DNA from: a virus
Taxonomy: Duplodnaviria; Heunggongvirae; Uroviricota; Caudoviricetes
Reading direction: 5' to 3' (one strand)
DNA length: 37,546 nt
IMG/VR virus record: IMGVR_UViG_2565956620_000003
Part shown: positions 2,574 through 37,546 of the stretch, in pieces
Position numbering within the stretch: position 1 is the first letter of the stretch
Layout: each line of letters starts with the position of its first letter
Program-made: the position numbers and the translations under genes
Notes under the pieces: generated by a model
What the model was told of the DNA's origin: nothing
Seen by the model: only the letters and a program-made list of their open reading frames with translations
Database searches by the model: none

Positions 2574-2582
2574 GCCGCGCCC

Positions 2583-3143: not shown

Positions 3144-3674
3144 TTACTGCACATCCTGCTCAAAAGGAATTATTGAAAAATCCTCAATGTCGCTTTTAAT
3201 GGAAATACCGGGAATATTTTTCACGGCCTCTTTTTCATTCAGGATAGCGTCTTTATTTATTTCCTCTTTTACACGAATAAAGCGCTCAAGCCCCAGACGT
3301 CTCAGTAATTCAATAACATTATCCGCCCCACGGATACTGACTGATGGCGGACGGTTTCGCCACTGCACCTCGCCGGTGGTGAGGTTAGCGAACTTCACCT
3401 TCCCGTTGCCGGTCAGTTCATCACGGTGTGCCTCACACCATGTCTGAATACCGGACTGCAGTTCGGCCATGCGTTTTTTCAGGCTCTCGGTGAGCGGGGC
3501 ATAACGTGCGGTGATATCGCCAATGGCGTCATTCATTTCTGTTTCAGCCCTGACCAGTTCACGTTGTGCGTCACCGAGTAGTCTGATTCCCTCAATGACC
3601 TCTTCACGTGTCCCCGGCACCCAGAGTGCTGCTGCGGCCTTGATACGTTTTGCACCTTTTGTACTTTTTGCCAT
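3144..3674 (-). CDS. gam: Gam host-nuclease inhibitor (DNA-end-binding, Ku-like)
   Basis: 176 aa; near-collinear similarity to Mu Gam as recalled (AKRIK.AAA..VP, ETEMNDAI, WCEA.RDELT..GKVK.ANL.TG.V.WR.RPPSVSIRG, LGL.RFIR.K.EINK.AIL, SIKSDIEDFSIIPFEQ). Confidence 0.9.
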   Translation of the reverse strand: MAKSTKGAKRIKAAAALWVPGTREEVIEGIRLLGDAQRELVRAETEMNDAIGDITARYAPLTESLKKRMAELQSGIQTWCEAHRDELTGNGKVKFANLTTGEVQWRNRPPSVSIRGADNVIELLRRLGLERFIRVKEEINKDAILNEKEAVKNIPGISIKSDIEDFSIIPFEQDVQ

Positions 3675-8173: not shown

Positions 8174-8183
8174 TGATTACTCC

Positions 8184-8498
8184 TTACAAACGACTACCTG
8201 AAATGACACGTTGGTTAATTTCGTTAATACGATCCTGTGCACGTGCCATCTCGTTACTGTGGGCCATGGCGATCTGCAGTAACTGGATGCCCGGTGCAAA
8301 ACGTCCGTTCTCCAGTTTCAGAGCCAGCCCTTCTTCAATGAGGGTGTTGAGTGCCCGGTTGATGTTTGCCGGTGACTCGTGCAGTGCTGTCGCCAGTTCA
8401 CCGTTAGAAATACCGTTCAGGGCATGACCGCGCAGCGCTTTGAGTACCCGGAGGATGCGACTGCCGGAGCTTGAAACATTCGTCTTACTCATCTGCAT
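8184..8498 (-). CDS. Winged-helix DNA-binding protein, hypothetical regulator
   Basis: 104 aa; segment ISNGELATALHESPANINRALNTLIEEGL looks like a winged HTH. Confidence 0.5.
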   Translation of the reverse strand: MQMSKTNVSSSGSRILRVLKALRGHALNGISNGELATALHESPANINRALNTLIEEGLALKLENGRFAPGIQLLQIAMAHSNEMARAQDRINEINQRVISGSRL

Positions 8499-8544
8499 AC
8501 CTCTTTTGCGATATGTGATAACCTTTTACAAAGACTCAAAATAT

Positions 8545-8733
8545 TTAGGCCGCCTGAGCTGTTGATTTCAGTCCCAACTTCACGGCGATTTCATGGGATT
8601 TACCGTAACGGGCTTTGGTCTGCCCGTTGAGAACGCGGTATACCTCATTGCGGTTGTAGCCGTTTTCTTCTGCCCAGCGGGTGAAAGTGATCCCGCGCTG
8701 GCGGAAGAGAGCTTTGACTTGTTCTGCAGTCAT
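8545..8733 (-). CDS. Ner-like (Cro-like) early transcriptional regulator
   Basis: 62 aa; spacing pattern V.A....RG.T......E.GY........L.G.....G..IA..LG matches the Mu Ner / Nlp family; first gene of the leftward early operon, divergent from the repressor. Confidence 0.7.
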   Translation of the reverse strand: MTAEQVKALFRQRGITFTRWAEENGYNRNEVYRVLNGQTKARYGKSHEIAVKLGLKSTAQAA

Positions 8734-8826
8734 CGTTGTCTCCTTTGTTGATGCAATGATGTTTGCCTTATATGTGTTAGATTATTGCTCATAATTATGA
8801 GCATATCAAGATAGAGATTCACTTTT
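8734..8826. promoter_or_regulatory. Divergent early/repressor control region with operator-like palindromes
   Basis: Perfect 18-bp palindrome TGCTCATAATTATGAGCA at 8786-8803; the half-site TTATGAGCA recurs at 8825-8833, overlapping the repressor start codon; AT-rich spacer between divergent genes. Confidence 0.6.
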
Positions 8827-9183
8827 ATGAGCAAAGATATAGGAGAGCGCGTTATTTCTGTGAGGAAGAAAGCAGGGTTGAACCAGAGAGAATTTGCAGC
8901 TCGTTTAGGTATTTCTAATGGTGGTATCAGTCAGATTGAAAATGGAAAGGCGATGCCTGGAGGGGAGTTTCTGTTAAAGATGCATCAAGAGTTTAATGTT
9001 GATGTAAATTGGTTGCTCACTGGAATGAGCACAGATGGTATGACTAGAAACCAGAATCAAATTTCCCCAGAAAAACAAAAACTAATAGATACTTTTGACG
9101 ACATGACACCAGACCAACAACGCTCATTTCTTGAGATTGGGCGATTCTATACTCAGCCAAAACCAGGAAAAATCGCAGGCTGA
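8827..9183 (+). CDS. XRE-family HTH repressor (prophage maintenance repressor candidate)
   Basis: 118 aa; classic Cro/C1-type HTH (LNQREFAARLGISNGGISQIENGK); divergent from the Ner-like gene. Confidence 0.8.
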   Translation: MSKDIGERVISVRKKAGLNQREFAARLGISNGGISQIENGKAMPGGEFLLKMHQEFNVDVNWLLTGMSTDGMTRNQNQISPEKQKLIDTFDDMTPDQQRSFLEIGRFYTQPKPGKIAG

Positions 9184-9269
9184 TACTGACCCGGACACAA
9201 AGGACAGGTGGTTGATCTGGATGCTTTCAGAAAACATCGCCAGTGACATAGTGGAAGTTGTTTGGTTTA

Positions 9270-9300
9270 CCGGAAAGCATTGTGCTTTCCGGTTTTGTTT
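9270..9300 (+). terminator. Rho-independent terminator after the repressor gene
   Basis: 9-bp perfect stem CCGGAAAGC / GCTTTCCGG with loop ATTGT, followed by TTTTGTTT; sits between the convergent repressor and methyltransferase genes. Confidence 0.6.
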
Positions 9301-10064
9301 CAGAAGTTGCAGATTAGCAGTTCACGGCGCGGCGTGGGTTTACCCGCCAGACTGTAGTTGATATTCACTGTCTGTATGTTCAGTCCAGTGAACACCTCGC
9401 GCATCTGCGGGATGTCGTTCACCGAAATTATCATTTTTCCTCTGATGCACCGGGCCAGCTCTGCCAGCCGCGAGTAGTTCCCTTCAGGAAAATCCACACC
9501 ATAGCCTTCCGTACCCAGGTACGGTGGGTCGCAGTAGAACAGCGTGTGCGGACGATCATAACGCTCAATGCACTGTTGCCAGTCCATGTGTTCTATGACT
9601 GTTCTGGAAAGCCGCAGGTGTGCCGCTGACAGTTCTTCTTCAATACGTAGCAGGTTGAAGCGTGGCGGGGATGTGGTGGAGGTACCGAAGCTGTGCTCTG
9701 CCACCTTGCCGCCAAACGCCTGCTTCTGAAGGTAGTAGAACCGTGCCGCACGCTGGATATCCGTCAGTGTTTCTTCCGGGGTGATCTGCAGCCATTTGTA
9801 GATCTGACGGCTGACCAGCGCCCATTTGAACTGGCGGACAAATTCTTCCAGGTGATGCTTTACCACCCGGTACAGATTCACCAGTTCACCGTTGATATCA
9901 TTGATGACTTCGATCTTGCCGGGTGTCTTAAGAAAATAGAGCGCTGCTGCCCCACAAAACGGCTCCACATAACATTCATGCGCCGGAAACAGCGGCAGAA
10001 TGTGTTTTGCAAGGCGGCGTTTGCCACCAATCCACGGCACGATGGGTAATGTCTGCATTTTCAT
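9300..10064 (-). CDS. Dam-family N6-adenine DNA methyltransferase (orphan)
   Basis: N-terminal PWIGGKRRLAKHILPLFP motif and catalytic DPPY motif (FYCDPPYLGTEGYG). Start placed at ATG 10064 (MKMQTLPIVPW); the track ORF extends to 10154 without support. No adjacent restriction endonuclease gene. Confidence 0.85.
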   Translation of the reverse strand: MKMQTLPIVPWIGGKRRLAKHILPLFPAHECYVEPFCGAAALYFLKTPGKIEVINDINGELVNLYRVVKHHLEEFVRQFKWALVSRQIYKWLQITPEETLTDIQRAARFYYLQKQAFGGKVAEHSFGTSTTSPPRFNLLRIEEELSAAHLRLSRTVIEHMDWQQCIERYDRPHTLFYCDPPYLGTEGYGVDFPEGNYSRLAELARCIRGKMIISVNDIPQMREVFTGLNIQTVNINYSLAGKPTPRRELLICNF

Positions 10065-10254
10065 AATCTGCAAGCCTTTTACAATTATTAAAAAATATGG
10101 CAGTCTGGTCAGGTCTCGCGAGACTGACTGAACCTTGGTCGGCTCACAGCGCATTCCTGTGGGGCGATGACCAGCCCGGCTTTCGGGTGCCGGGCTGGTC
10201 GTTCTTTCATGATGCGGCAGGGATGGCGGGATTTCTGTTAATGTGGTTTAGGGA

Positions 10255-10470
10255 TTATCCGGGGCGATTTTCTGACCTTATCCGGTCCAGGGCATAAGTA
10301 ATACCTTCTGCAAAAACAGAAGTATCAAACTGCTTTTGTATTCCCTGAAAATGAAAAGCGGCACGACAGACACTCAGTTCTCCGCGGTATAACCGGATAA
10401 TATCTTCCAGAACATTGTTCACTGCTTCAGCACGGCGCTGATGTTCTGTTAACGTTAATCGGGGATTCAT
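10255..10470 (-). CDS. Hypothetical protein (71 aa)
   Basis: Strong ribosome-binding site AAGGAG 6 nt upstream of the ATG on the minus strand. Confidence 0.5.
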   Translation of the reverse strand: MNPRLTLTEHQRRAEAVNNVLEDIIRLYRGELSVCRAAFHFQGIQKQFDTSVFAEGITYALDRIRSENRPG

Positions 10471-10873
10471 GATGCACTCCTTAAATGATGATTTTTATGT
10501 ACTCACCGGCAAAATATTCTGCCGATTACTGAACACGCATCCGGCACCTCAGGTTTTGATTTATTCTGGTTTTTTCGATATCCCGGACCAGGTTGATCAC
10601 GACCAGAAAAAGTGCCGGTGTTTTATTGATACGCTGATATGGCTTCGGGATAACAGCTATATTCGTTACTCTCAGTTGCTGGCTGTGGGAGCGGCTGATG
10701 TCGTCCTCACGGAAAAAACGCTCTGTCTGCTCAATGCCATGCCGACCTTTCTGCAGCCCCGGCCCGTACCATTTAAAGAGTCACTTCTGGATGCAGTAAA
10801 AACCGGTGAAAATGCAGTCATCGCTGAATGCGTATCCCGGATTATGCGTTACGTGTTTAATGAACGTAAGTGA
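10469..10873 (+). CDS. Hypothetical protein (134 aa), uncertain
   Basis: Only long ORF filling the 378-bp gap between two minus-strand genes; its start codon overlaps the start of the divergent 71-aa gene within TCATGATG; relatively AT-rich segment. Confidence 0.3.
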   Translation: MMHSLNDDFYVLTGKIFCRLLNTHPAPQVLIYSGFFDIPDQVDHDQKKCRCFIDTLIWLRDNSYIRYSQLLAVGAADVVLTEKTLCLLNAMPTFLQPRPVPFKESLLDAVKTGENAVIAECVSRIMRYVFNERK

Positions 10874-11577
10874 GGTTTATCCGCTGTCTGCATAATCCCG
10901 ATAGCCAGTGCGAGGGGAAGTAATTCCGGGGAAACTCTTTCAAACAGCGATGCCCATTCTCCTCTCGCCATCACTCTGTCCAGCCCGCCCTCCAGTTGCA
11001 TTTCAGCAATCTTCCTGATTTCCCGGAACAACGCCGCTTTGATCTCTTCATGCTCAGCTTTATTTTCCGGTGTCAGAAGGTATTCGTCGAAGAACCGGGG
11101 AGGCTGGTTAATCGGGATGTGTTCCTGTTTGCCGTACTTCGGGGACGAACAACATTCTGTTGACTGACCAGTGAGTTTACGTAACTCCTTCATGAGCAGC
11201 TCCTGATCGTAAACTGTCATCAGTGCCGCAATGGTGGCATGCAGTGCATCGGGCAGTATCCAGGGTTGCCGGCCCGTGGGGCATATAACATCCAGCAGCT
11301 CATTCGTCCGACAGATACGCTCCTCGCCGTATGACAACAGGCCCTGTCCCGTGTATTCCTCCAGCCTGATCACTGTGCCAGCCCGTGGTTTCTGCCATGT
11401 GCTCAGATCATCCCCACTCATACGGCGCTCACCGTCCACGTCTGCGGCGTCGACAATGACGCTGTTTCCGAATTCCTGTTTCACCACTTCCTCTATTCGC
11501 GCCAGTACGTAACTTTTACCGCTGCCCACAGGACCGGACACGGTGACAGTGATGACCGGATTCAGTGTCTGCGTCAT
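10849..11577 (-). CDS. P-loop NTPase of unknown function
   Basis: 242 aa; Walker A SGPVGSGKS near the N-terminus and a candidate Walker B (SVIVDAAD); no resemblance to Mu core proteins that I can recognise. Confidence 0.6.
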   Translation of the reverse strand: MTQTLNPVITVTVSGPVGSGKSYVLARIEEVVKQEFGNSVIVDAADVDGERRMSGDDLSTWQKPRAGTVIRLEEYTGQGLLSYGEERICRTNELLDVICPTGRQPWILPDALHATIAALMTVYDQELLMKELRKLTGQSTECCSSPKYGKQEHIPINQPPRFFDEYLLTPENKAEHEEIKAALFREIRKIAEMQLEGGLDRVMARGEWASLFERVSPELLPLALAIGIMQTADKPHLRSLNT

Positions 11578-11707
11578 ATCGTATTCTCCTCTGTGAATAA
11601 TTCATCGTTTATCCTGCACATCCCGTATCCCCGGCTCTCTTAACGCGCTTTAAAATCCTTCGCGCCCTGTATTTGTGATGCTGTCTCCACCAGATAAGGA
11701 GACACAC

Positions 11708-12058
11708 ATGAAAAACCTGAAAAAATTCATTCCCCCTGTTAAAAAACCTCGCCTCAGCGGCTGGCTGCTGACCTCAGTGCTGTTGCTGGGCACCATCGCT
11801 CTGGTCTCACCACAGCAGCTGCCTGTTGTGATCTACAAGCTGGCACTCATCACGCTGGCAGCAGTGCTGGGTTACTGGCTTGACCGTTCGCTCTTCCCCA
11901 AAGCCCGTCCCGGTCAGTACCTGAAACATGACGACAGGCTGATGGCTGAAGGGCGTTTCCCGGTACAGACCGGCCTTCACCTGGTGTTTTCTGCTGCGTT
12001 AATCCGCCGTGCACTGATTGTTGCAGCGGTCTGCCTGGCTGTTGCGATGGGGCTTTAA
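11708..12058 (+). CDS. Putative holin (three hydrophobic segments)
   Basis: Ribosome-binding site AAGGAGA upstream of ATG 11708; product has about three TM-like segments and a charged C-terminus; directly upstream of the endolysin. In-frame GTG/ATG at 11675/11678 could give a longer form. Confidence 0.5.
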   Translation: MKNLKKFIPPVKKPRLSGWLLTSVLLLGTIALVSPQQLPVVIYKLALITLAAVLGYWLDRSLFPKARPGQYLKHDDRLMAEGRFPVQTGLHLVFSAALIRRALIVAAVCLAVAMGL

Positions 12059-25586: not shown

Positions 25587-28538
25587 ATGTCGGGACAGTT
25601 TTCAGTCGGCGTTGTTATCGGCGGGATGATTGGCAGCACATTCCGTTCTGCAATGAGCGGTACCCGCCGTGCGCTTGATTCCCTGAGCGATACCTCACGC
25701 CGCCTGCAGGAACGTCAGAACGCTTTAACCCGTGCAACAGAACGTTATGGTCAACTGGGTTCTTCCCGGATGCAGCATCTCAACAGCGAGCTGCTGCGGG
25801 TAAGCCGCACCATGGAGCAAATTGAGCGCCAGCAGCGCCGTCTGTCAGCGGCATCCGCTACCAGTGATGCGCTGAAAGCTAACCGCATGGCGCTGTATGG
25901 TCAGGGGATTGAAGCGTATGGCATGGCACAGACTGTTTATCATACGGTTTCCCCTGCCGTTCAGCAGTCCATGTCTTTTCAGGACAAAATGATTGATATG
26001 TCGATCACCGCAAAATATGACAATAAAACGCGGGATGCACTTGCCGGACAGATAAAAGGCTGGGCGCTTAAATACAATCAGTATCAGGATGAGCTGCAGG
26101 AGGCGATGGGTTCACTCATCAGCGACAATATTGATAATGTGTCAGATATCGGTTTTCTGATGCCGGATATTGCCCGCGCGGCAACGGCAACACGCACGTC
26201 TGCTCAGGACTGGGCAAAAGTGGCCGCAGTCTGGCAAAACTCCCTGAAAGGCGCGGCCAGAGATTTTGGTGCCGTTCAGAATATTATGGCTTATGCCGGT
26301 GACCAGGGGTCATTTGAAATCCCGGATCAGGTCAAGTGGATGCAGTCCCTGGCCCCAATGATGGCGGGTATTGCCAGTGGAAAAGAGGCTGTTGCTGAAA
26401 TCGGGGCCAGTCTCCAGATAGCAAAAATCGGTGCAGGTTCCACCGACGAAGCAGCCAATAATTTTAAAAACTTTCTTACCAAAATTTTTGCCCGCGATAC
26501 TCAGAAACAGTTTGCTGATCTGGGTATTGATTTGCAGGGATCTATTGCGAGTTATAAAGCTGCGGGGATCTCTCCGATTGAAGGGATGTTGAGTGTTATA
26601 GAACGTTACCTCAATGCCAAAAGCCCCGAAGCGCTGGCCGGCTTCAAATCAGCCATGAAAATAAAGAATGATACGGCAAGAGATGAGGCACTTCAGGCTC
26701 TGGCGAAAAACTTTGGTCTGGGCGATATGTTCGCGGATATGCAGGTCATGGCATTTATCCGCCCGATGCTGGCCAACATGGACAGATATCGAGAGATCCG
26801 TGCCGGTGCTCTCAGGGCTGCGGATAACGATTTGCTTGCCAGTGCTTATGATCAGCGGCTGAAATCTCCCCTTGAAGCCACTAAAACACTTATGGTCAGC
26901 AGTCGCGATCTGGCAATTACGCTGGGCGATCAATTAGCTCCATCTTTTATTTCTCTGACTCAGGACTTGCTCCCACTCATTCAGGGGACAAAACACTGGG
27001 TGGCGACTCACCCGCAATTTGTCAGTGGGGCTTTTAAGCTCATCAGTGCGCTCCTTGCGATTAAGATAGCGACTGTTGGTCTCAAACTGGGGCTGAATCT
27101 CCTTATTTCCCCCTTTGTGAACGTCTGGAAAACTGCTGTTTTACTCCGGACCAACTGGCATCGACTGACTACCGCACTCGGAGAAGGTGGCAAATTACGC
27201 TGGCTTGTCACTGGATTCAGCCGACTGACCAGCGGAGGACTGAAACTCAGCAAAGTTCTGGCGGGCAGCCTCGTTCGCGGTTTTATGAGCGCTGCACGTG
27301 CCGTTCTCTGGATTGGGCGAGCGCTGATGATGAATCCCATCGGTCTCGTTATCACCGCTGTCGCGGCAGCAGCTTACCTTATCTACCGCAACTGGGGGGC
27401 AGTCAGTGGCTGGTTTAAACAGCGCTGGGCTGACATTCAGGAAGCCTTTAACGGCGGTATCGCGGGAACTGGTAAGCTGCTGATTAACTGGTCGCCGGCA
27501 GGCCTGCTCTATAAAGCCTTTGCGGCTGCGCTGAAATATTTCGGCGTTACTCTGCCGGCAAAGTTCACCGACTTCGGTGGCCATCTTATCGACGGTTTGA
27601 TTAACGGTATCAAAAACAAATGGGGGTCGCTCAAATCCAGTGTAACCGGAATGGGTGACAGCATCAGTAGCTGGTTTAAACAATGCTGGGCTGACATTCA
27701 GGAAGCCTTTAACGGCGGTATCGCGGGAACTGGTAAGCTGCTGATTAACTGGTCGCCGGCAGGCCTGCTCTATAAAGCCTTTGCAGCTGCGCTGAAATAT
27801 CTTGGTGTTGATCTGCCGGCAAAGTTTACCGACTTCGGTGGCCATCTTGTCGATGGTCTGATTAACGGTATCAAAAACAAATGGGAGTCGCTCAAATCCA
27901 GTGTAACCGGAATGGGCGACAGCATCAGTGGCTGGTTCAGCGAAAAGCTGGGCATTCATTCGCCGAGCCGCGTGTTTATGGGCTTTGGTGACAATATCGC
28001 GCAGGGGGCCGCCATTGGCCTGCAGCGGACCACTCCGCTTGCAGCTCTGGCCGGGCAGCGAATGGCCAGTGAACTGCTCCCCAGAATGCCCGTGAGCATT
28101 CAGGGGCCAGAAATACGGGATAACACTTCAGGTGTTCGCTTCAGTATGCCGTTGCCCGATATCAATGGGTTTATGTCGTCTGCTAAAAATGCGATCGGAG
28201 CCGTAATCAATAGTTTGTCTTCCATGCCCGCTATTCCGCTCTCCACCCGGGCATCGATTTTACCAGGGCAACGTCTGGCAAATGAGATGACACCGGATGT
28301 TCCCCGTATCCCCTCGCCTGAAATCCTGGCTGCCGGATATTCAGGCCGTGGTGCAGCTGCAACCGGCGGTGGAACGTCTGGTGGTATCCAGGTCAGCTTT
28401 AATCCTCAGTTTTTCCTCAATGGCAGGGAAACCACAGCGCCTGCAGGACTGACTGGTGCCCTGAATATGAGTCTGCATGAGCTGGAAAAAATGCTGGAGC
28501 GTCTGCTGGCTCAGAAACAACGTAAGGAGTACCGCTGA
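25587..28538 (+). CDS. Tail tape measure protein
   Basis: 983 aa; long helical N-terminal part, hydrophobic central segments, position after the chaperone pair. Confidence 0.9.
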   Translation: MSGQFSVGVVIGGMIGSTFRSAMSGTRRALDSLSDTSRRLQERQNALTRATERYGQLGSSRMQHLNSELLRVSRTMEQIERQQRRLSAASATSDALKANRMALYGQGIEAYGMAQTVYHTVSPAVQQSMSFQDKMIDMSITAKYDNKTRDALAGQIKGWALKYNQYQDELQEAMGSLISDNIDNVSDIGFLMPDIARAATATRTSAQDWAKVAAVWQNSLKGAARDFGAVQNIMAYAGDQGSFEIPDQVKWMQSLAPMMAGIASGKEAVAEIGASLQIAKIGAGSTDEAANNFKNFLTKIFARDTQKQFADLGIDLQGSIASYKAAGISPIEGMLSVIERYLNAKSPEALAGFKSAMKIKNDTARDEALQALAKNFGLGDMFADMQVMAFIRPMLANMDRYREIRAGALRAADNDLLASAYDQRLKSPLEATKTLMVSSRDLAITLGDQLAPSFISLTQDLLPLIQGTKHWVATHPQFVSGAFKLISALLAIKIATVGLKLGLNLLISPFVNVWKTAVLLRTNWHRLTTALGEGGKLRWLVTGFSRLTSGGLKLSKVLAGSLVRGFMSAARAVLWIGRALMMNPIGLVITAVAAAAYLIYRNWGAVSGWFKQRWADIQEAFNGGIAGTGKLLINWSPAGLLYKAFAAALKYFGVTLPAKFTDFGGHLIDGLINGIKNKWGSLKSSVTGMGDSISSWFKQCWADIQEAFNGGIAGTGKLLINWSPAGLLYKAFAAALKYLGVDLPAKFTDFGGHLVDGLINGIKNKWESLKSSVTGMGDSISGWFSEKLGIHSPSRVFMGFGDNIAQGAAIGLQRTTPLAALAGQRMASELLPRMPVSIQGPEIRDNTSGVRFSMPLPDINGFMSSAKNAIGAVINSLSSMPAIPLSTRASILPGQRLANEMTPDVPRIPSPEILAAGYSGRGAAATGGGTSGGIQVSFNPQFFLNGRETTAPAGLTGALNMSLHELEKMLERLLAQKQRKEYR
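27411..27932 (+). repeat. In-frame tandem duplication (2 x 261 bp) inside the tape measure gene
   Basis: Two adjacent, nearly identical 87-aa units beginning WFKQ(R/C)WADIQEAFNGGIAGTGKLLINWSPAGLLYKAFAAALKY...; copies start at 27411 and 27672. Confidence 0.85.
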
Positions 28539-29422
28539 TGTTTGCCGTACTGGGTGATATTGAGTTTGAGCTGATTACCTACTGGGACGGCTTCGAGGCC
28601 ACGTTCGGCGTCGATTATGCGGAGCATGCCCGCATCGGGGGTAAGCCTGGTCTGCAGTTCGTCGGCGACAGGCTGGACGAAATCCAGATAACTCTGGTTT
28701 TCCATCAGCATTATTGTGTACCCGATGTGGAGCTGGCGAGACTGCGAACAGCCATGAAAGCCCATCAGGCACTGGCGCTGGTCTTCGGCAACGGTGACTA
28801 TCGCGGCTGGTTCGTGATCACCGATGTGACTGCAACCAGCGAGCAGACTGACAGTACCGGCAACGTGCTGGCTGTCAGTGCCACCGTGTCTCTCCGGGAA
28901 TACACCGGTGACCCGAAAAATCCTCTGCAACCACCGGCAATACGCACGAAGCTCCCGGGTGTCGGGGCGGTCTCCGGTGCCATACCTTCACCTTCAGGGG
29001 TGGCGCAGTTCATCCGCAACGGCGTCAACTATGCGAAACAGGCGCAGTCTGTACTCCAGACCACTATCAGCGCCGTTCGGGTGACACAGAAAATGAAGGA
29101 TAACCCCGTTGTCGCACTGACCCGTGTGCCGGGGCTGATGAGCGGACTGGGTAATATCTCCGGGGCTCTGGGGAAAAGTGTTCCGGCGTTTAACGCACTC
29201 TCTGAATCCATGCCCGATGCCATCAGTCTGGCCAGAACAGCCAGCGAAGCAGCCACGTATGTACAGCAGGCACAGTCTGCGCTGAGTGGTGTGGACAAAA
29301 GAAATATTGCAGGTGCTCTGGATACCGTTTCCGGGCAGCTTAACGCCGTCGGCACAGCATTCAACCGCATGTCTCCGGGATTAAGTGCAATGGCCGCCAG
29401 AATACTGACGAGGAGTGTGTGA
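28538..29422 (+). CDS. Tail protein, P2 gpU-like N-terminal domain with C-terminal extension
   Basis: N-terminus MFAVLGDIEFEL ... ARIGGKPGLQFVGDRLDEIQI resembles P2 gpU; ATGA overlap with the tape measure stop. Confidence 0.55.
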   Translation: MFAVLGDIEFELITYWDGFEATFGVDYAEHARIGGKPGLQFVGDRLDEIQITLVFHQHYCVPDVELARLRTAMKAHQALALVFGNGDYRGWFVITDVTATSEQTDSTGNVLAVSATVSLREYTGDPKNPLQPPAIRTKLPGVGAVSGAIPSPSGVAQFIRNGVNYAKQAQSVLQTTISAVRVTQKMKDNPVVALTRVPGLMSGLGNISGALGKSVPAFNALSESMPDAISLARTASEAATYVQQAQSALSGVDKRNIAGALDTVSGQLNAVGTAFNRMSPGLSAMAARILTRSV

Positions 29423-29634
29423 TGTTTCTTGAACATGTTACCCGTGACGGAGAGCGCTGGGATTCGCTGGCATGGCAGTACTACGGTGACCCGCTGGGCT
29501 ATCCCCGGATTATTGCCGCCAATCCGCACGTGGCCATCACGCCGGTGCTGCCCTCCGGGCTGTTGTTACTGATCCCGGTGATTGAGGCTGAAGAAGCCCG
29601 TACAGAAGAGGATATTGCCCCATGGCTGAGATAA
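29419..29634 (+). CDS. Tail protein X-like (P2 gpX-type)
   Basis: 71 aa; small ORF in the conserved position before the gpD-like gene. Confidence 0.55.
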   Translation: MMFLEHVTRDGERWDSLAWQYYGDPLGYPRIIAANPHVAITPVLPSGLLLLIPVIEAEEARTEEDIAPWLR

Positions 29635-30776
29635 ACAGCACTGCGCAAGTCACATCAGCGTTAACCGGCGTCAGCGATGTGCTGACACCGGTGTTCACTC
29701 TGTGGTATCTGCAGAAAAACATCACCTCTGATATCGCGCCTTATGTCACCCGTGTGACCTGGAGCGATAACATCAAAAATGAGTCCGATACCATTGAGGT
29801 GGAGCTGGACGACACCGATGGCCGCTGGCTGGATAAATGGTATCCGGGCAAGGGTGACACGCTGACGCTGAAAATGGGCTATCAGGGCGAGAAGCTGCTG
29901 TCCTGCGGTACGTTCTCTATAGACGAGATCGAAGTGAGTTCGCCCGCTTCCGTTGTTTCTATCCGTGGGGTGGCCACCTCGGTTAACAGTGCCCTGCGGA
30001 CTAAAACCAGTCGTGGTTTTGAGAACACCACGCTGGCAGCTGTTGCGGGGCGGATTGCCAGAAAGCACCGGCTGAAACTGGTGGGCAGCATTGAGTCCAT
30101 CAGAATCGACCGGGTGACCCAGTATGCTGAAACCGACGTGGGTTTTCTGCGCCGGCTGGCCAGCGAGTATGGTTATGCAGTGAAAGTGGTCAGTGACCAG
30201 CTGATTTTTTCTCATCTGGCCACACTGCGCAGTCAGGAGCCGGTCAGGCAGTTAAAACCGCAGGATGTGGCCCGCTTTTCCCTGCGTGACACCATCAACC
30301 GGGTCTATAAATCTGCAAAGGTAAAACACCAGAAAAGCAGCAGTAAAAAACTGATCGTCTACGAAGCTGATGGTGGTACCCGTGAAAGCGACAAAAAGCT
30401 CAAAGGTGGTAAGGTTACCAGCGCTGACTCACTTAAAGTTAACAGCCGCGTCAGCGACCCGGACAGTGCCCGGATTAAAGCGGATTCAGCACTGGCCAGA
30501 CATAACGAATACCAGCAGAACGGCTCCCTGACGCTGACGGGAACACCTCAACTGACAGCAGGCAACAAAATTGAACTGGTGAGTTTTGGGCAGTTATCCG
30601 GGCCATGGCTCATAACCACTGCCCGCCATGCGTTTGACCGTAACAGCGGCTACACCACAGAGCTGGAAGTGGCACGGGGGCCAGTCACAAGAGGGAAAAA
30701 ACAAAAAACTCAGAAACTCACGGTTTATCACCCGGATGGCAGTACATCGACGGTGATTAAGGAGAAGAAAAAATGA
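29622..30776 (+). CDS. Baseplate hub / late control gene D-like tail protein
   Basis: 384 aa; order and size match the P2 D / Mu P position. Confidence 0.7.
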   Translation: MAEINSTAQVTSALTGVSDVLTPVFTLWYLQKNITSDIAPYVTRVTWSDNIKNESDTIEVELDDTDGRWLDKWYPGKGDTLTLKMGYQGEKLLSCGTFSIDEIEVSSPASVVSIRGVATSVNSALRTKTSRGFENTTLAAVAGRIARKHRLKLVGSIESIRIDRVTQYAETDVGFLRRLASEYGYAVKVVSDQLIFSHLATLRSQEPVRQLKPQDVARFSLRDTINRVYKSAKVKHQKSSSKKLIVYEADGGTRESDKKLKGGKVTSADSLKVNSRVSDPDSARIKADSALARHNEYQQNGSLTLTGTPQLTAGNKIELVSFGQLSGPWLITTARHAFDRNSGYTTELEVARGPVTRGKKQKTQKLTVYHPDGSTSTVIKEKKK

Positions 30777-31369
30777 CTGGTGTCACTCGTCAGGTCGGTA
30801 CGGTCAGTGCCGTTGATGCCGACAGGGTTCAGGCCCGCGTTCGTCTGCCTGAATGCGATAACCTGCGCACAAACTGGCTTAACGTGCTGCAGCGCAATAC
30901 CCAGGATAACAAAGATTACTGGCTCCCTGACGTGGGGGAGCAGGTTGAGGTGCTGCTCGATGCCAACGGCGAGGATGGTGTTATTCTGGGCGCGGTGTAT
31001 TCAGACGTCGATAAACCACCGTTCAGTGACAAAAATATCCGGGGAACCCGGTTTGCTGATGGTGCAGAGTACAGCTACAACCGGAAGACGCACACTCTGA
31101 TCATCCGGGGCGGCATTGAGCATATTGTCATTGAGTGTGGTGCTGATGTGGTATTGAAAACACAGAAAGCCACGATTGACGCACCGGAAACCGAACTTAC
31201 CGGAGATCTGCGTGTCAGGGGTAAGCTGATTTACGAAGGAGGCATGGCGGGTTCTGGTGGTGAAGGTGTTACCGCGACCATCCATGGCAATATCGAGATT
31301 AAAGGGAATGTCCATGCCACGGGCAGTATGTTGTCTGATGGCGAAAACTCCAGCCACCACTCCCACTGA
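30773..31369 (+). CDS. Baseplate spike protein (gpV-like)
   Basis: 198 aa; gpV-like N-terminal domain (WLPDVGEQVEVLLDANGEDGVILGAVYSD). Confidence 0.75.
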   Translation: MTGVTRQVGTVSAVDADRVQARVRLPECDNLRTNWLNVLQRNTQDNKDYWLPDVGEQVEVLLDANGEDGVILGAVYSDVDKPPFSDKNIRGTRFADGAEYSYNRKTHTLIIRGGIEHIVIECGADVVLKTQKATIDAPETELTGDLRVRGKLIYEGGMAGSGGEGVTATIHGNIEIKGNVHATGSMLSDGENSSHHSH

Positions 31370-31423
31370 GCTTTTTAAACGCCTTTAATATCAGCGTTCC
31401 CGCACGGGGGCAATACTGCCCCC

Positions 31424-31771
31424 ATGAAAACAACCTCAGTATTCTGGCAACCAGCCCTGCAGGCTCCCGGCGAAATTGTCCGGGGGCTGGATGATATCCG
31501 GCAGGCGATTCAAATTATCCTGCGGACTCCCCGCGGCAGCGACCCGCATCGCCCGGAGTTCGGCAGCAATCTGCATCTTTATATCGACTGGCCTGTAGAC
31601 CGGGCCATTCCGCATGTGGTGCGCGAATCCGTCGATGCCATCCGGCGCTGGGAGCCCCGCTGCCAGCTTATGTCAGTTAAACCCGCCGTCGACGGCGAAC
31701 ATCTTACGCTCCGGGTGAGCTGGAAAGGCTCAGACGGACAGACCCGGACTCAGGAGCTGCTATGGCGCTGA
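31424..31771 (+). CDS. Baseplate wedge protein (gpW / gp25-like)
   Basis: 115 aa; motif VRGLDDIRQAIQIILRTPRGSDPHRPEFGSNLHLYID typical of the gpW/gp25 family. Confidence 0.75.
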   Translation: MKTTSVFWQPALQAPGEIVRGLDDIRQAIQIILRTPRGSDPHRPEFGSNLHLYIDWPVDRAIPHVVRESVDAIRRWEPRCQLMSVKPAVDGEHLTLRVSWKGSDGQTRTQELLWR

Positions 31772-32865
31772 CAGAACCCGATTTTATTGAACGCGATGCC
31801 GACAAAATCACGGCAGAAATGATTGCGAAGTATGAAGCGGATACCGGCAAAACGCTGTACCCGGCACAGGCAGAACGTCTGCTGATTGATCTGTGGGCCT
31901 ATCGCGAAATGCTGGTCAGGGTTGCGGTACAGGAGGCAGCAAAGCAGAATCTGGTCGCCTTTGCCCGTGAGCCGATGATTGATTACCTCGGTGAACTGGT
32001 CGGTGTATACCGTCTTGCCGCGCAGCCTGCCACCACCACGCTCCAGTTCTCCGTAGATGAGGCACTGGCCATTGATGTGCTGATCCCGGCAGGCACCCGC
32101 GTCAGCGCTTCCGACAGCGTTATTTTTGCCACCGATACAGATGTGGTACTGAAGGCCGGATTGCTGCTGGTCAATGTCACGGCCACCTGTACCGAACCCG
32201 GTACCGCTGGTAACGGCTGGCAACCTGCGCAGGTCAGTCAGTTACTCGATGAGATTGATAACGTTAACCTGCTGGTGAGCAATCTGATGGCCAGTTCCGG
32301 CGGTTCAGAACAGGAAGACGATGACAGGCTCCGGGAGCGTATCAGGCTGGCCCCGGAGTCATTCACCAATGCCGGAAGCCGTGGCGCATACCGCTTTCAT
32401 GCCATGCAGGCCCATCCCAACATTGTCGATGTTGCTGTGCTTTCCCCGGTTCCCGGGACCGTAGATCTGTATCCGCTGCTCAGTACCGGTCTGCCGGACG
32501 GCGGTGTTCTCACGCTGGTAGAGAGTTTCTGCTCTGATGAGAAAGTCAGGCCACTCACTGATACAGTGCGGGCTAAAACACCAGTGAAGGTGGATTACAC
32601 CATTGAAGCCAGGATTACGATCTATCGTGATCAGGATGCCAGGTCTGTAAAAGATGCCGCTAACAGCGCCATACAGAACTGGGTGGCATCACGTGCCGCC
32701 ACGCTGGGGCGCGATATTGTCCCCAGCCAGATTATCAGTGCATTGTCCGTTTCCGGGGTGTACCAGGTTGAACTGGTGACACCGGCACTGCGGGTGGTGG
32801 CAGAAAACGAATGGGCAAACTGTACGGCAATCACTCTTAACATGACTGGAGTGTCTGATGACTGA
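31762..32865 (+). CDS. Baseplate J-like protein
   Basis: 367 aa; position after the gpW-like gene. Confidence 0.8.
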   Translation: MALTEPDFIERDADKITAEMIAKYEADTGKTLYPAQAERLLIDLWAYREMLVRVAVQEAAKQNLVAFAREPMIDYLGELVGVYRLAAQPATTTLQFSVDEALAIDVLIPAGTRVSASDSVIFATDTDVVLKAGLLLVNVTATCTEPGTAGNGWQPAQVSQLLDEIDNVNLLVSNLMASSGGSEQEDDDRLRERIRLAPESFTNAGSRGAYRFHAMQAHPNIVDVAVLSPVPGTVDLYPLLSTGLPDGGVLTLVESFCSDEKVRPLTDTVRAKTPVKVDYTIEARITIYRDQDARSVKDAANSAIQNWVASRAATLGRDIVPSQIISALSVSGVYQVELVTPALRVVAENEWANCTAITLNMTGVSDD

Positions 32866-33436
32866 GCCATTACAACTCCCGCCACCGCTTGAGGGTGATA
32901 TCAGTCTCAGGACGCTGGGAAGACTGGCAGGACGGCTGGATAACATCGACCTGAGCGTACTGATGGTCTTTCTCGTCGATATCGTCGACAGTTCCGCGCT
33001 GCCATGGCTGGGCGAGCAGTTCTCACTGTCTGGCGATGGCTGGGAGCTGGCGGAATCGGACGATGTTCGCCGCATGCTTATAAAAGCAGCCATCGAACTG
33101 CACCGGTATAAAGGGACGCCGTGGTCAATCCGGGAAGTTATCCGCCGTTTTGGCTTTGGTGAAGTGGATCTGATTGAAGGCACAGGTCGTCTCAGTTACG
33201 ACGGCAATCGCAGCTATAACGGACTGTTTGTTCATGGAGATGCAGCCGCCTGGGCAGTTTATCGCGTTATTCTGAAACAGCCCATTACTAACGATCAGGC
33301 CGCGATGCTGCGTCAGACGCTGGCTGCATTTGCACCGGCCCGCTGCCATCTGGCCAGCCTGGAGTATCAGTCTGTGGCCATTCGCTATAACAATACCGCC
33401 ATCCATGATGGCAGTTATAACCACGGGAGCAGTTGA
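32858..33436 (+). CDS. Tail protein I-like (baseplate, fibre attachment)
   Basis: 192 aa; P2 gpI position, directly upstream of the fibre gene. Confidence 0.7.
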   Translation: MTEPLQLPPPLEGDISLRTLGRLAGRLDNIDLSVLMVFLVDIVDSSALPWLGEQFSLSGDGWELAESDDVRRMLIKAAIELHRYKGTPWSIREVIRRFGFGEVDLIEGTGRLSYDGNRSYNGLFVHGDAAAWAVYRVILKQPITNDQAAMLRQTLAAFAPARCHLASLEYQSVAIRYNNTAIHDGSYNHGSS

Positions 33437-34770
33437 TTATGGGAAACCTGAATGAAACAGAAAAGTGGGAAGAAAATATCTATCAACTGGAGACATCAGA
33501 TCCGGTTCTGGGTGGTGCAGACGGGATATCAAATCGAGCCCCCCGGCAACTGGCAAACAGGACGAAATGGCTGAAGAAGAAAACGGAGGAAGCCGCACAG
33601 TCACTGGCTGAACACGTACGTTCCCGTAACCACCCGGACGCGACACTGACAGCTAAGGGGTTCACCCAACTGAGCAGTGCCACCAACAGCACCTCTGAAA
33701 CGCTGGCCGCCACACCAAAAGCGGTCAAGGCTGCATACGACCTGGCAGCCGGCAAGGCGCCTGCCAGCCACACTCACCCGTGGAGTCAGATAACGGGAGT
33801 GCCTGCGGCTTCACTGACGGCAAAAGGCACCGTACAACTGAGCAGCGCCACGGACAGTCAATCAGAAACTGAGGCTGCCACGCCGAAGGCGGTCAAGGCT
33901 GCATACGACCTTGCAGCCGGCAAGGCGCCCGTCAGCCACACTCACCCGTGGAGTCAGATAACGGGAGTGCCTGCTGCCTCGCTGACGGCAAAAGGCACCG
34001 TACAATTGAGCAGTGCCATCAACAGCACGTCTGAAATACTGGCCGCCACACCGAAAGCGGTCAAGGCTGCATACGATCTGGCAAACGGAAAACAACCGGC
34101 AGATGCCACGCTCACTGCTCTGGCAGGACTTGCCACTGCAGCAGATCGGTTGCCTTATTTTACCGGAGCAGACCGCGCAGAGCTGGCAACCCTTACAGCT
34201 ATTGGTCGCGCTATTATCGCTAAGGGCAGTATAAAAGATGTCCTCAATTACCTTGGTTTAGGAGAAGGCTCGGCGCTACCCGTTGGTGTGCCTGTTCCGT
34301 GGCCCACCGCCACACCGCCAGCAGGCTGGTTAAAGTGCGACGGGCGCGCCTTTACAAAAGAACAATATCCTGTTCTGGCCAGAGTCTACCCGACCCTCCG
34401 TCTTCCCGATTTACGCGGTGAGTTTATCCGTGGATGGGACGACGGGCGCAAAGTTGATACAGGACGTAAGTTGCTGTCCGCACAAGGGGCAACGCTGTTA
34501 AGAACAGCAATGCTGGATTATTATAACCAGGACACTACGGGAACCTCGGGGATAGTCGGCATGGGATTCAACAATGAAGATTCCATTACAGACCTTCGTG
34601 AGGGCAGCTTTAAAATGCCGGACGGGACAACATTCAGCGATCCTGTCGTGGCAATGTCAGACAATGGTATGCAGGCTACTATTCTGACCTCTATCAGAAG
34701 CGGGTATGCGAAGGGTATCACTGTCAGACCCCGTAGCATTGCACTTAATTACATTGTGAGGGCAGTTTAA
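33433..34770 (+). CDS. Tail fibre protein: constant N-terminal part plus the currently expressed variable C-terminal cassette 1
   Basis: 445 aa; internal 56-aa tandem repeats; its C-terminal about 170 aa begin with the sequence GEGSALPVGVPVPWPTATPPAGWL that is also found at the start of two minus-strand cassettes. Confidence 0.85.
   Translation: MIMGNLNETEKWEENIYQLETSDPVLGGADGISNRAPRQLANRTKWLKKKTEEAAQSLAEHVRSRNHPDATLTAKGFTQLSSATNSTSETLAATPKAVKAAYDLAAGKAPASHTHPWSQITGVPAASLTAKGTVQLSSATDSQSETEAATPKAVKAAYDLAAGKAPVSHTHPWSQITGVPAASLTAKGTVQLSSAINSTSEILAATPKAVKAAYDLANGKQPADATLTALAGLATAADRLPYFTGADRAELATLTAIGRAIIAKGSIKDVLNYLGLGEGSALPVGVPVPWPTATPPAGWLKCDGRAFTKEQYPVLARVYPTLRLPDLRGEFIRGWDDGRKVDTGRKLLSAQGATLLRTAMLDYYNQDTTGTSGIVGMGFNNEDSITDLREGSFKMPDGTTFSDPVVAMSDNGMQATILTSIRSGYAKGITVRPRSIALNYIVRAV
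33646..34100 (+). repeat. About 2.7 tandem copies of a 168-bp (56-aa) tail-fibre repeat
   Basis: Units starting CTGAC at 33646, 33814 and 33982; protein unit LTAKG..QLSSA..S.SE..AATPKAVKAAYDLA.GKAP.SHTHPWSQITGVPAAS. Confidence 0.75.
34246..34271 (+). other. Candidate recombination crossover site A (gix/hix-like), inside the fibre gene
   Basis: TTACCTTGGTTTAGGAGAAGG; its reverse complement aligns with sites B and C around an AAACC-AA core. Confidence 0.5.
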
Positions 34771-35384
34771 TGAGTAACACTGCAGTTCTGGATGAAAACG
34801 GTATCGCCACTGTAGCGGGCGATATCACTGTATATCACTATGACGAGGAAACCCGGGAATACACCTCATCCTCTGTGGAGTATCTCGCCCTTGGGGTGGG
34901 TACTCCGGCACATTCGTGCGCCGATGCACCGCCGGAAGCAATTTCGGGTTACGTGGTTTGCCGGACTGCCACGCTGAACGGGTGGGAGCATGTGCCTGAT
35001 CACCGCGGCGAGACGGTATACAGCACGGAGAACGGTAACCCCGTTCTGATTACCCAACCGGGTGATTACCCGGCGGACACCACCACAAAACAGCCAGCCA
35101 CGCCATGGGATACCTGGAACGGTGAGGCGTGGGTAACCGATACTGAACGGCAGCGAGCCGCAGAACTGGAGGTTGCCAGACAGCAACGCCAGCAACGGGT
35201 GAAACAGGCGATGGCGTCCGTCGATCTTATCAACCTCAAACTGCGTGCTGGTCGCAGTCTGAAACCAGAAGAAACGGCAAAACTGAACGCCGTGCTGGAT
35301 TATATCGACGAGCTGAACGCACTGGATATCAGCAAGGCACCTGAAATCAGCTGGCCGGAAGCGCCACTGGCGCTTGCCGGCTGA
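34770..35384 (+). CDS. Tail fibre assembly protein (Mu U / Tfa-like)
   Basis: 204 aa; start overlaps the fibre stop (TAATG); located inside the invertible segment. Confidence 0.7.
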   Translation: MSNTAVLDENGIATVAGDITVYHYDEETREYTSSSVEYLALGVGTPAHSCADAPPEAISGYVVCRTATLNGWEHVPDHRGETVYSTENGNPVLITQPGDYPADTTTKQPATPWDTWNGEAWVTDTERQRAAELEVARQQRQQRVKQAMASVDLINLKLRAGRSLKPEETAKLNAVLDYIDELNALDISKAPEISWPEAPLALAG

Positions 35385-35390
35385 ACGGTA

Positions 35391-35852
35391 TCACGCCGCC
35401 CTCACGATATAGTTAAATGCGATATTGCGGGGGCGAGCTGATACATAAGCCCACCAGTCATATCTTTGTGCACCTTTAGAGGATGCATCAAATATCCACT
35501 TTTTGCCATTTAAGACCCCCAGTTGATTAGAGGTTAAAGCGTCACCAAATCCGTATTGTGTAGAGCCGAGCGAACTGATATCTCCGGTATCATTATCATC
35601 AAAACCGGATACGATAGTCCCTTCCTGAAATGAAAGTAGCGCACGCCCGGTATCAACCTTGCGACCACCGTCCCATCCACGGATAAACTCACCGCGCAAA
35701 TCGGGAAGACGGAGGGTCGGGTAGACTCTGACCAGAACAGGATATTGTTCTTTGGTGAACGTAGCTCCGTTGCACTGTAACCAGCCTGCTGGCGGTGTGG
35801 CGGTGGGCCATGGAACCGGTACACCAACAGGCAATGCAGAGCCTTCCCCCAA
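35391..35852 (-). CDS. Silent alternative tail-fibre C-terminal cassette 2 (no start codon of its own)
   Basis: Begins at the crossover-like site with TTG (Leu in the fused reading frame) and LGEGSALPVGVPVPWPTATPPAGWLQCNG, about 90% identical at DNA level to the start of cassette 1; ends with the shared motif RPRNIAFNYIVRAA. Confidence 0.7.
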   Translation of the reverse strand: MGEGSALPVGVPVPWPTATPPAGWLQCNGATFTKEQYPVLVRVYPTLRLPDLRGEFIRGWDGGRKVDTGRALLSFQEGTIVSGFDDNDTGDISSLGSTQYGFGDALTSNQLGVLNGKKWIFDASSKGAQRYDWWAYVSARPRNIAFNYIVRAA

Positions 35853-35863
35853 ACCAACGTTTC
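35838..35863 (-). other. Candidate recombination crossover site B
   Basis: Plus-strand sequence CCTTCCCCCAAACCAACGTTTCTATG at the 5' end of cassette 2. Confidence 0.5.
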
Positions 35864-36291
35864 TATGCCGCCCTTACGATGTAATTAAACGCAATGTTAC
35901 GGGGACGAATGGTCACATAATTAACCCCATCGCCTCGCGAAGGACCTGCAAATGAAAAACGGGAGAATCCAGGTTGGTTGTCAACGATTTGGTCATAGTT
36001 ATTGATTGAATGACCAGACCCAATGTCAAAATTACCTGCGTAATGAGAAAAACTTGTACCATCCTGCCGTGAAAGCAGATCGCGCCCTGTATCCACTTTT
36101 CGCCCGTCGTCCCATCCACGGATAAACTCACCGCGTAAATCGGGAAGACGGAGGGTCGGGTAGACTCTGGCCAGAACAGGATATTGTTCTTTTGTAAAGG
36201 CGCGCCCGTCGCACTTTAACCAGCCTGCTGGCGGTGTGGCAGTGGGCCACGGAACAGGTACACCAACGGGCAGCGCCGAGCCTTCCCCCAA
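35863..36291 (-). CDS. Silent alternative tail-fibre C-terminal cassette 3 (no start codon of its own)
   Basis: Begins with TTG at the crossover-like site; first ~200 bp about 97% identical (inverted) to 34262-34460 of the fibre gene; ends with RPRNIAFNYIVRAA; an in-frame TGA lies just upstream of the site on the minus strand. Confidence 0.7.
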   Translation of the reverse strand: MGEGSALPVGVPVPWPTATPPAGWLKCDGRAFTKEQYPVLARVYPTLRLPDLRGEFIRGWDDGRKVDTGRDLLSRQDGTSFSHYAGNFDIGSGHSINNYDQIVDNQPGFSRFSFAGPSRGDGVNYVTIRPRNIAFNYIVRAA

Positions 36292-36308
36292 ACCAACGTT
36301 TATCTCTC
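36283..36308 (-). other. Candidate recombination crossover site C
   Basis: Plus-strand sequence CCTTCCCCCAAACCAACGTTTATCTC at the 5' end of cassette 3, about 55 bp upstream of the invertase gene. Confidence 0.5.
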
Positions 36309-36362
36309 AAATCCTCCCCACATTATCTCAGTACTTTAACCACTCAAAAGGGAGTATTTTTA

Positions 36363-36935
36363 ATGCTGATTGGCTACATACGTGTGTCAACAAATGACCA
36401 AAACACAGATTTGCAACGCAATGCATTAATGTGCGCAGGATGTGAACAGATTTTTGAGGACAAAATGAGCGGAACCAAGTCGGAACGACCAGGCCTGAAA
36501 CGCGCTTTAAAGTGCCTTAAAAGAGGGGATACATTGGTGGTCTGGAAGCTGGATCGGTTGGGTAGAAGAATGAAACACCTCATTGCTCTCACAGAAGAGC
36601 TACGCGCAAAAGGTGTCAATTTTCGCAGTCTGACGGATTCAATCGATACCAGCACTCCGATGGGAAGGTTCTTTTTTCATATGATGGGTGCACTGGCAGA
36701 AATGGAGCGTGAACTGATAGTTGAGCGCACGCTGGCTGGACTGGCTGCTGCGCGAGCACAAGGAAGAGTTGGAGGACGTCGCCCGAAACTGACGAAGGAG
36801 CAGCATGAGCAGATCGCAAGATTGCTCCAGAAAGGGTATGACAGAAAGCGGCTGGCAATTATCTATGATATTGGACTGTCAACGATCTACCGCTATCACC
36901 CTGTTGGGACTGTCATAACGCAACCTGAAATGTAA
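36363..36935 (+). CDS. Serine DNA invertase (Gin/Hin/Cin/Pin family)
   Basis: 190 aa from ATG 36363; N-terminus MLIGYIRVSTNDQNTDLQ with the catalytic serine in RVST; C-terminal HTH; ribosome-binding site AAGGGAG upstream. The track ORF start at 36234 is an unsupported upstream extension. Confidence 0.9.
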   Translation: MLIGYIRVSTNDQNTDLQRNALMCAGCEQIFEDKMSGTKSERPGLKRALKCLKRGDTLVVWKLDRLGRRMKHLIALTEELRAKGVNFRSLTDSIDTSTPMGRFFFHMMGALAEMERELIVERTLAGLAAARAQGRVGGRRPKLTKEQHEQIARLLQKGYDRKRLAIIYDIGLSTIYRYHPVGTVITQPEM

Positions 36936-36967
36936 TTCTTTTTCAAATAATGAAACGCCGCGTGGAT

Positions 36968-37013
36968 GCCATTTATCGCACAAGATAGAGTGCATTTATC
37001 GCGCGGCGCATCA
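36968..37013 (+). other. Prophage right end with two direct transposase-binding-like repeats
   Basis: CATTTATCGC at 36970-36979 and 36994-37003; terminal sequence GCATTTATCGCGCGGCGCATCA resembles the Mu right end as recalled and ends in CA at 37013. Confidence 0.5.
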
Positions 37014-37546
37014 CCACCGGGATTGGCATTCTTTATGTCAAAGAAGCCTTGTTGCAGGAGATGCCGCCGTGGGAAGGGGGCGGTTCTATGATCGCCACCG
37101 TCAGCCTGAGTGAAGGCACTACCTGGACCAAAGCACCATGGCGGTTTGAAGCCGGTACACCCAATACCGGGGGCATCATTGGTCTTGGCGCGGCGCTGGA
37201 GTATGTGTCGGCGCTGGGGCTTAATAACATAGCCGAGTATGAACAGAATCTGATGCACTACGCGCTATCACAGCTGGAATCTGTACCGGATCTCACTCTC
37301 TATGGCCCGCAGAACAGGCTTGGCGTTATTGCTTTTAATCTCGGTAAACACCACGCCTATGATGTTGGCAGTTTTCTCGATAACTACGGCATTGCTGTGC
37401 GTACCGGACATCACTGCGCAATGCCATTGATGGCCTATTACAACGTTCCTGCTATGTGTCGGGCGTCGCTGGCCATGTATAACACCCATGAAGAAGTGGA
37501 TCGTCTGGTGACCGGCCTGCAACGTATTCACCGTTTGCTGGGATAA
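37014..37546 (+). pseudogene. sufS: 3' fragment of host cysteine desulfurase gene sufS (about codons 230 to 406), cut off from its 5' part by the prophage
   Basis: Translation from 37016 reads [31 protein letters not shown] ... [50 protein letters not shown], matching the C-terminal part of E. coli SufS as I recall it; reading frame is lost upstream of 37014. Confidence 0.85.

Follow-up and report, generated by a model that had tools for sequence, protein, structure and literature searches.

The window analysed here, by which the whole stretch of 37,546 nucleotides is meant, is composed of two parts that meet between positions 37013 and 37014: the body of a transposable prophage, at 1-37013 on the plus strand, and the 3′ part of the host gene sufS. 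The prophage body corresponds to nucleotides 33-37045 of a 37,045-bp element, as established by its colinearity with the prophage of strain 4/1-1, from which it differs by a single mismatch (at 27764) in 37,013 nt. In strain 4/1-1, the element is 37,045 bp long, starts with TGATTAGACTTGAG, ends with GCGCATCA, is bounded by TG...CA, and is flanked by a duplication of TTCTTC. Because the window opens 32 nt inside the left end of the phage, the left junction lies outside it. Window positions 1-1300 are 100% identical to a prophage present in 641 of the 5426 complete E. coli genomes, and in the three genomes inspected (4/1-1, LS4, and O25b:H4 ST131) the prophage is located between aroA and ycaL.

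The left arm of the prophage carries the transposition genes. A DDE (rve) transposase of the BcepMu/B3 (Tn552-related) group is encoded at 5151-6920 on the minus strand (Pfam rve; PHROG 310 transposase, E = 3.7e-147), sharing 67.8% identity with BcepMu gp09 and 56.3% with B3 TnpA over at least 98% of the length; at E ≤ 0.001 it matches rve alone, and none of the Mu-specific transposase Pfam families was found in it. The gene immediately downstream, at 3974-5140 on the minus strand, encodes an AAA+ transposition partner (MuB/TnpB-like, 'ExeA family' in RefSeq) that matches Pfam AAA_22 (E = 3.8e-20) and PHROG 296 (E = 5.5e-93), the latter labelled 'DNA transposition protein'. The genes for Gam, GemA/gp16, and Mor share the transposase strand and run toward the left end, with the leftmost gene (132-521, minus strand) encoding a Mor-family late transcription activator (Pfam Mor, E = 1.3e-43) at the same position and on the same strand as BcepMu gene 01. 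A divergent early/late control region contains the gene for an HTH_3 repressor-like regulator at 8827-9183 on the plus strand (HTH_3, E = 4.6e-15; Phage_CI_repr, E = 1.8e-5), which corresponds in position to BcepMu gp17, a cro/cI-type regulator. The central control region also holds a gene for a D12-class (Dam-type) N6-adenine methyltransferase (9300-10154, minus strand). No record was found for a small ORF at window positions 1-228.

In the right part of the prophage, the tail-fibre gene at 33433-34770 contains three tandem 168-nt repeats at 33644-34147, the second and third being 83% and 65% identical to the first, which correspond to the Phage_fibre_2 repeat region. An invertible tail-fibre segment occupies 34241-36308 and is bordered by 26-bp invertase crossover sites at 34241-34266 (plus strand) and 36283-36308 (minus strand), both exact matches to the EC958 Phi2 sites published in Table 3 of PMC4134206. 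A 229-nt inverted repeat has its arms at 34250-34478 and 36071-36299, and two alternative collar-domain C-terminal cassettes on the minus strand, at 35391-35852 and 35863-36291, share this repeat with the tail-fibre gene at 34250-34478. The last phage gene, at 36363-36935 on the plus strand, encodes a 190-aa Gin-type small serine DNA invertase (Resolvase, E = 8.2e-51; HTH_7, E = 1.3e-12), and the segment at 34241-36308 is a multi-cassette host-range switch operated by this invertase. From the invertase stop codon, which ends at 36935, a non-coding right terminal region of 78 bp (36936-37013, plus strand) extends to the junction, and the right end of the phage is without a mom-like gene. An Rfam scan of the window returned nothing, and neither a sigma-70-like promoter nor an intrinsic terminator was matched in 36200-37546.

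Within the terminal region, the two repeats and the end of phage-type sequence at 37013 that the earlier note had described are both present. The 10-mer CATTTATCGC (minus strand GCGATAAATG) occurs exactly twice in the whole window when both strands are searched, at 36970-36979 and 36993-37002 with a spacing of 23 bp, against a mean of 0.09 exact matches after shuffling. Read on the minus strand, the inner copy of GCGATAAATG lies at phage nt 35-44 from the right end and the outer copy at nt 12-21, and both are presumed to be bound by the transposase. In this phage as in BcepMu, TGA opens each of the two ends, and G(C/A)GATAWWT motifs follow at nt 12-21 and about 35-44; this shared placement identifies the two repeats as conserved subterminal motifs of the phage group. 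The analogy with Mu and KS10 (PMC2628397) makes them most likely transposase-binding sites. The termini of the phage read TGATTAGACTTGAGATAAATG on the left and CATTTATCGCGCGGCGCATCA on the right, and the phage DNA in the window stops with GCGCATCA (last bases GCGCGGCGCATCA), where the terminal CA dinucleotide at 37012-37013 on the plus strand is the cleavage and joining end. TG...CA ends are named as characteristic of BcepMu relatives, whose transposases also have an rve core (PMC2628397). The 24-nt right end was found in 15 IMG/VR stretches, abutting at least 11 different flanks among IMG/VR contigs, and the 27-nt left end in 24. Since the bases just outside differ among loci, the TG and CA ends are fixed. 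The idea of a CTG left end with a 5-bp duplication, which arose from the first two sites, both with C preceding TG, was rejected, as the base before TG can be A, C, G, or T.

Beyond position 37013, the sequence is that of sufS. In at least 25 complete E. coli genomes, the 3′ part of sufS agrees with 37014-37546 at 100% identity, and 5422 of the 5426 complete genomes give a match; the alignment starts exactly at 37014, so that the comparison with an uninterrupted sufS locus, proposed earlier as a means of fixing the junction, defines it to the base. The intact gene of SMS-3-5 reads CATAAACTGTATGGCC/CCACCGGGATTGGC at the insertion point (the slash marking the break), from which it follows that the break falls after the first base of sufS codon Pro230; in E. 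coli 907672, the prophage is thus inserted between bases 1 and 2 of this codon. The 176 in-frame residues encoded at 37016-37543 align to residues 231-406 of the 406-residue E. coli SufS/CsdB (E = 1.7e-118), bearing out the reading of this stretch as the C-terminal part of SufS broken at HKLYGP/TGIG, directly behind the PLP-lysine motif. They match the solved SufS/CsdB structures 1I29 and 1C0N, as well as 1JF9 in its own entry numbering, and the C-terminal part of Pfam Aminotran_5. The host fragment (37014-37546, plus strand), supported by both DNA identity and the SufS alignment, therefore comprises Thr231-Gly406 at 37016-37543 and the stop codon at 37544-37546. Past this fragment, the source contig carries sufE, ldtE, lpp, and pykF in the usual order.

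The other side of the insertion was approached through protein records. The 161-aa truncated SufS product (ATG start) led to KI531284.1 (GCA_000488355.1, E. coli 907672, 217,649 bp), which is identical to window positions 27061-37546 over 10,486 nt; a 165-aa product (TTG start) led to an unrelated short contig (locus L044) with different upstream DNA and was set aside. The product of the 5′ half of sufS was predicted for different lengths of duplication. A 6-bp duplication gives ...GGC CCC ACC G/TG ATT AGA CTT GAG ATA AAT GAC AGG GAA TAA, encoding SufS 1-231 followed by VIRLEINDRE (241 aa), with the next base being window position 1, whereas a 5-bp duplication gives ...ACC/TGA and a 231-aa product. 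When exact sequences were looked up, the 241-aa chimera proved to be on record under the name 'cysteine desulfurase, SufS subfamily [Escherichia coli 907672]' (ESD03482.1), on a single contig with the same length as KI531284.1, 217,649 bp; in the same collection, the 231-aa product with the same allele was absent. The 5′ part of sufS that had been expected at the other prophage end is accordingly on record as an exact 241-aa protein in strain 907672. Reconstructed from this protein record, the left junction in KI531284.1 is predicted to read CTGTATGGCCCCACCG/TGATTAGACTTGAG or, carried up to window base 1, CATAAACTGTATGGCCCCACCG/TGATTAGACTTGAGATAAATGACAGGGAATAA, and the 5′ half of sufS would abut the left end of the phage with a duplication of CCACCG. 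This also accounts for where the window starts, just past the stop codon of the chimeric gene.

A 231-aa product consisting of SufS 1-231 of the T156/T159 allele was found exactly on 34 Logan contigs, with the same end codon and a different allele. Its cluster has 388 N-terminal fragments, to which this product probably belongs, arising from a contig end or another insertion; a second insertion one base away is conceivable.

Given that the source genome is a draft assembly, that the packaged DNA of transposable phages ends in variable host sequence (PMC8705779), and that the phage-sufS junction was found in no other collection, the junction could in principle be a chimeric misassembly or a trace of host DNA on packaged virion DNA. 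Such an artefact is nevertheless very improbable: the break falls exactly at the terminal CA of the phage, a complementary left junction with the group-typical 6-bp duplication is recorded (ESD03482.1), and beyond the right junction the chromosomal genes run in their normal order for about 10 kb, within the 217,649-bp contig. Misassembly in particular is disfavoured because a misjoin would not reproduce a duplication specific to the family. Equally little weight is given to a secondary rearrangement, in which recombination between two copies of the prophage, one of them for instance at ycaL, would have created the junction. Some genomes hold two or three copies of the phage, and a related locus (L012) has a rearranged right end, but recombination between copies at different sites would leave different 6-mers at the two ends, and the left junction in 907672 repeats CCACCG and supplies precisely the missing 5′ part of sufS, as for a simple insertion.

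The behaviour of the phage at other sites points to transposition. Across IMG/VR stretches, genomic loci, and the window, 28 distinct 6-mers without a strong consensus flank the phage ends. At all four sites for which both junctions were available, the duplication is 6 bp long: TTCTTC at ycaL, where the empty site of K-12 holds a single TTCTTC; GCACAT (loci L036/L007, same contig); AACAGG (loci L026/L008, same sample); and CGTCAC (locus L012). Published values are 5 bp for Mu and 6 bp for B3/Tn552-family phage transposases (PMC8705779). The earlier note had expected a 5-bp duplication near CCACC at sufS, an expectation that does not hold, as the phage duplicates 6 bp at these four sites and the 5-bp product is absent; because the phage is of the BcepMu/B3 type, the duplication here is 6 bp, CCACCG, with the right-hand copy at 37014-37019 (plus strand) delimited by the 6 bp of the other sites and the left copy inferred from ESD03482.1. 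In the mechanism proposed, the rve transposase (5151-6920) would, as its family membership suggests, bind the paired G(C/A)GATAWWT motifs near each end; together with the AAA+ partner (3974-5140), it would join the terminal CA-3′OH ends to a target cut with a 6-bp stagger, and gap repair would then duplicate CCACCG.

The presence of a serine recombinase gene (36363-36935) adjoining the junction, and the location of the phage at one place, beside ycaL, in most complete genomes, might be taken as signs of an integrase phage that uses sufS as its regular attB. There is hardly any credence to be given to site-specific integration of this kind, however. The recombinase is the 190-aa Gin-type invertase, which has its own crossover sites around the tail-fibre segment; the only other recombinase of the phage is the DDE transposase, and no other integrase is annotated in the identical prophage. 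The phage ends abut 28 different 6-mers, each copy is flanked by a short duplication of unrelated sequence, the phage lies in sufS in none of the 5426 complete genomes, and the common ycaL site fits clonal inheritance. Positions 36936-37013 are therefore almost certainly the right terminus of a 37,045-bp BcepMu-type prophage inserted by DDE transposition into host sufS (37014-37546).

The right phage-sufS junction had no further occurrence in IMG/VR, metagenome contigs, GTDB species genomes, or the 5426 complete E. coli genomes, and a gapped left-junction pattern was not found in metagenome contigs, which makes the insertion private to one strain in the collections searched. With one base separating the phage from the ST131-type copy, and no difference between the sufS flank and intact alleles, the insertion looks recent and private to E. 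coli 907672.

Two of the related loci deserve description. In the ST131-type genomes inspected, the phage lies in codons 1-3 of ycaL (locus L002, 3206-3988; NZ_CP023844.1, 1,002,301-1,039,345), and RefSeq still annotates there a 260-aa YcaL (WP_029364556.1) with its start inside the left end of the phage, so that ycaL relies on phage-derived start signals. Locus L012 (IMGVR_UViG_2654587728_000014; 2343-3274 and 8163-11780) contains a 930-bp right-end fragment, 94% identical, in inverted orientation to a left end; the 5.8 kb that separate the two include a second invertase and tail-fibre region, and CGTCAC flanks both ends. It looks like a rearranged copy, perhaps produced via invertase sites common to prophages.

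As regards the consequences for the host, the insertion leaves a 241-aa product and a promoter-less fragment for residues 231-406. A functional SufS requires K226 and C364 in one polypeptide, and neither fragment holds both Lys226, the PLP lysine of SufS/CsdB, and the persulfide cysteine. C364 is the SufS persulfide site (PMC10011822). Before TTG at 37049 or ATG at 37061, there is no start codon in frame that would join the phage to the 3′ fragment, and sufE is now 37 kb from the suf promoter. With K226 and C364 split and sufE cut off from its promoter, the insertion is most likely a sufS null allele with polar loss of sufE. Such an allele would disable the stress-responsive Suf Fe-S pathway, with the housekeeping Isc pathway keeping the cell viable. 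As nothing resembling a terminator was detected from the invertase gene to the sufS fragment, weak read-through from the phage into sufE is possible and the polarity perhaps incomplete. CsdA/CsdE could partly substitute for SufS/SufE. Loss of Suf is tolerated by E. coli, as the Suf pathway of BL21(DE3) is non-functional (bioRxiv 10.1101/811059).

Several other, independent natural lesions of sufS exist, with NZ_CP059003.1 and NZ_CM166348.1 among the loci concerned: an IS1 insertion in strain 2D, unrelated DNA upstream of about codon 240 (L044), deletions of 11 bp (L046) and 5 bp (L051), a +1 frameshift (L054), two different nonsense codons (L047 and L049), and a deletion in CH4796 that leaves the last 185 bp only. 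Some of these may be sequencing errors. Their clustering near codons 225-245 is a selection effect, because most were ascertained via the truncated 161-aa product. Recurrent inactivation of sufS was considered and rejected on the grounds of this ascertainment and of the retention of sufS at a coverage of at least 80% in 5420 of the 5426 complete genomes, a retention that argues for a rare, recent accident in the present case.

The left end of the phage sits directly downstream of sufABCD-sufS′, whose promoter is induced by iron and oxidative stress. It is a long shot, drawn from the geometry of the locus, that transcription from the suf promoter enters the prophage antisense to the early (transposase) operon, or that the loss of Suf was selected in the clinical isolate. 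If the former were true, antisense transcription could couple prophage control to host Fe-S stress.

In terms of significance, the phage has already been deposited and described, and the disruption of genes by such phages is textbook knowledge, so nothing here is new in kind, and the significance is slight beyond strain 907672. The ends of a very common E. coli prophage are nevertheless set to the base, with TG at nt 1 and CA at nt 37,045, and these exact ends, together with the 6-bp duplication, help to delimit the phage in other genomes. For 'Mu-like' prophages of the BcepMu/B3 group, 6-bp rather than 5-bp scars should be looked for. The clinical isolate 907672 would also provide a natural sufS::prophage null allele, inferred as described above, and a possible test of Suf dispensability.

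Among known systems, EC958 Phi2 and Escherichia phage PhiKM (PQ738613.1) are essentially the same phage, window positions 1-25000 being 100% identical to PhiKM PQ738613.1. With respect to the ST131-type copies, only the chromosomal site differs, with the first codons of ycaL and TTCTTC there and sufS and CCACCG here. The PhiKM record is 34,674 bp long and permuted relative to the prophage, and its main match does not include about 34386-37013, where the invertible segment, the invertase, and the right end lie. This suggests an assembly that is incomplete or circularised, with the true ends being those of the prophage.

BcepMu (Bcepmuvirus, NC_005882.1) is syntenic with the phage, with the Mor, GemA, B-like, and A genes on the minus strand at the left, a central control region, and late genes with a P2-like tail on the plus strand, and its gp09 is annotated as a Tn552/IS1604 rve transposase. 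There is, however, little similarity at the DNA level, and no Burkholderia phage appears among the megablast matches. The present phage carries a Dam-type methylase, unlike BcepMu. It also has a Gin-type invertase and, with it, an invertible tail-fibre segment, both of them reported to be absent from BcepMu (PMC2628397); at its right end, BcepMu has an acyltransferase gene in place of the invertase segment. Pseudomonas phage B3 provides the reference for the 6-bp duplication of Tn552-family phage transposases (PMC8705779), but it has a different host, and no DNA-level match to B3 was obtained in the phage searches.

The comparison with Mu separates the two parts of the earlier reading, in which this was a randomly transposed Mu-like prophage. 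Transposition stands, supported by the junction itself, the TG...CA ends, the DDE, AAA+, Mor, and Gam genes, and the many sites of insertion; the likeness to Mu needs to be narrowed. Like Mu, the phage integrates by DDE transposition, has TG...CA ends, encodes Mor, Gam, and GemA, carries Mu-like head genes, and possesses a Gin-type invertible segment for host range. At the outer right end, TGATGCGCCGCGCGATAAATGC resembles Mu R1, TGAAGCGGCGCACGAAAAACGC. In contrast to Mu (Muvirus), whose transposase has MuA-specific Pfam domains, the phage here shows rve alone; Mu duplicates 5 bp, whereas this phage duplicates 6 bp at four of four sites; the early genes of Mu run rightward from the left end, whereas here the early arm is inverted and lies on the minus strand; and Mu has com/mom at its right end, in place of which an invertase gene ends 78 bp from the terminus. 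The rve transposase with its AAA+ partner, the TG...CA ends with inverted motifs, the 6-bp duplication, the many unrelated sites, the length of 37,045 bp within a range of about 36-39 kb, and the overall layout are all those of the BcepMu/B3 type, to which, on these sequence features, the phage belongs, rather than to Mu proper.
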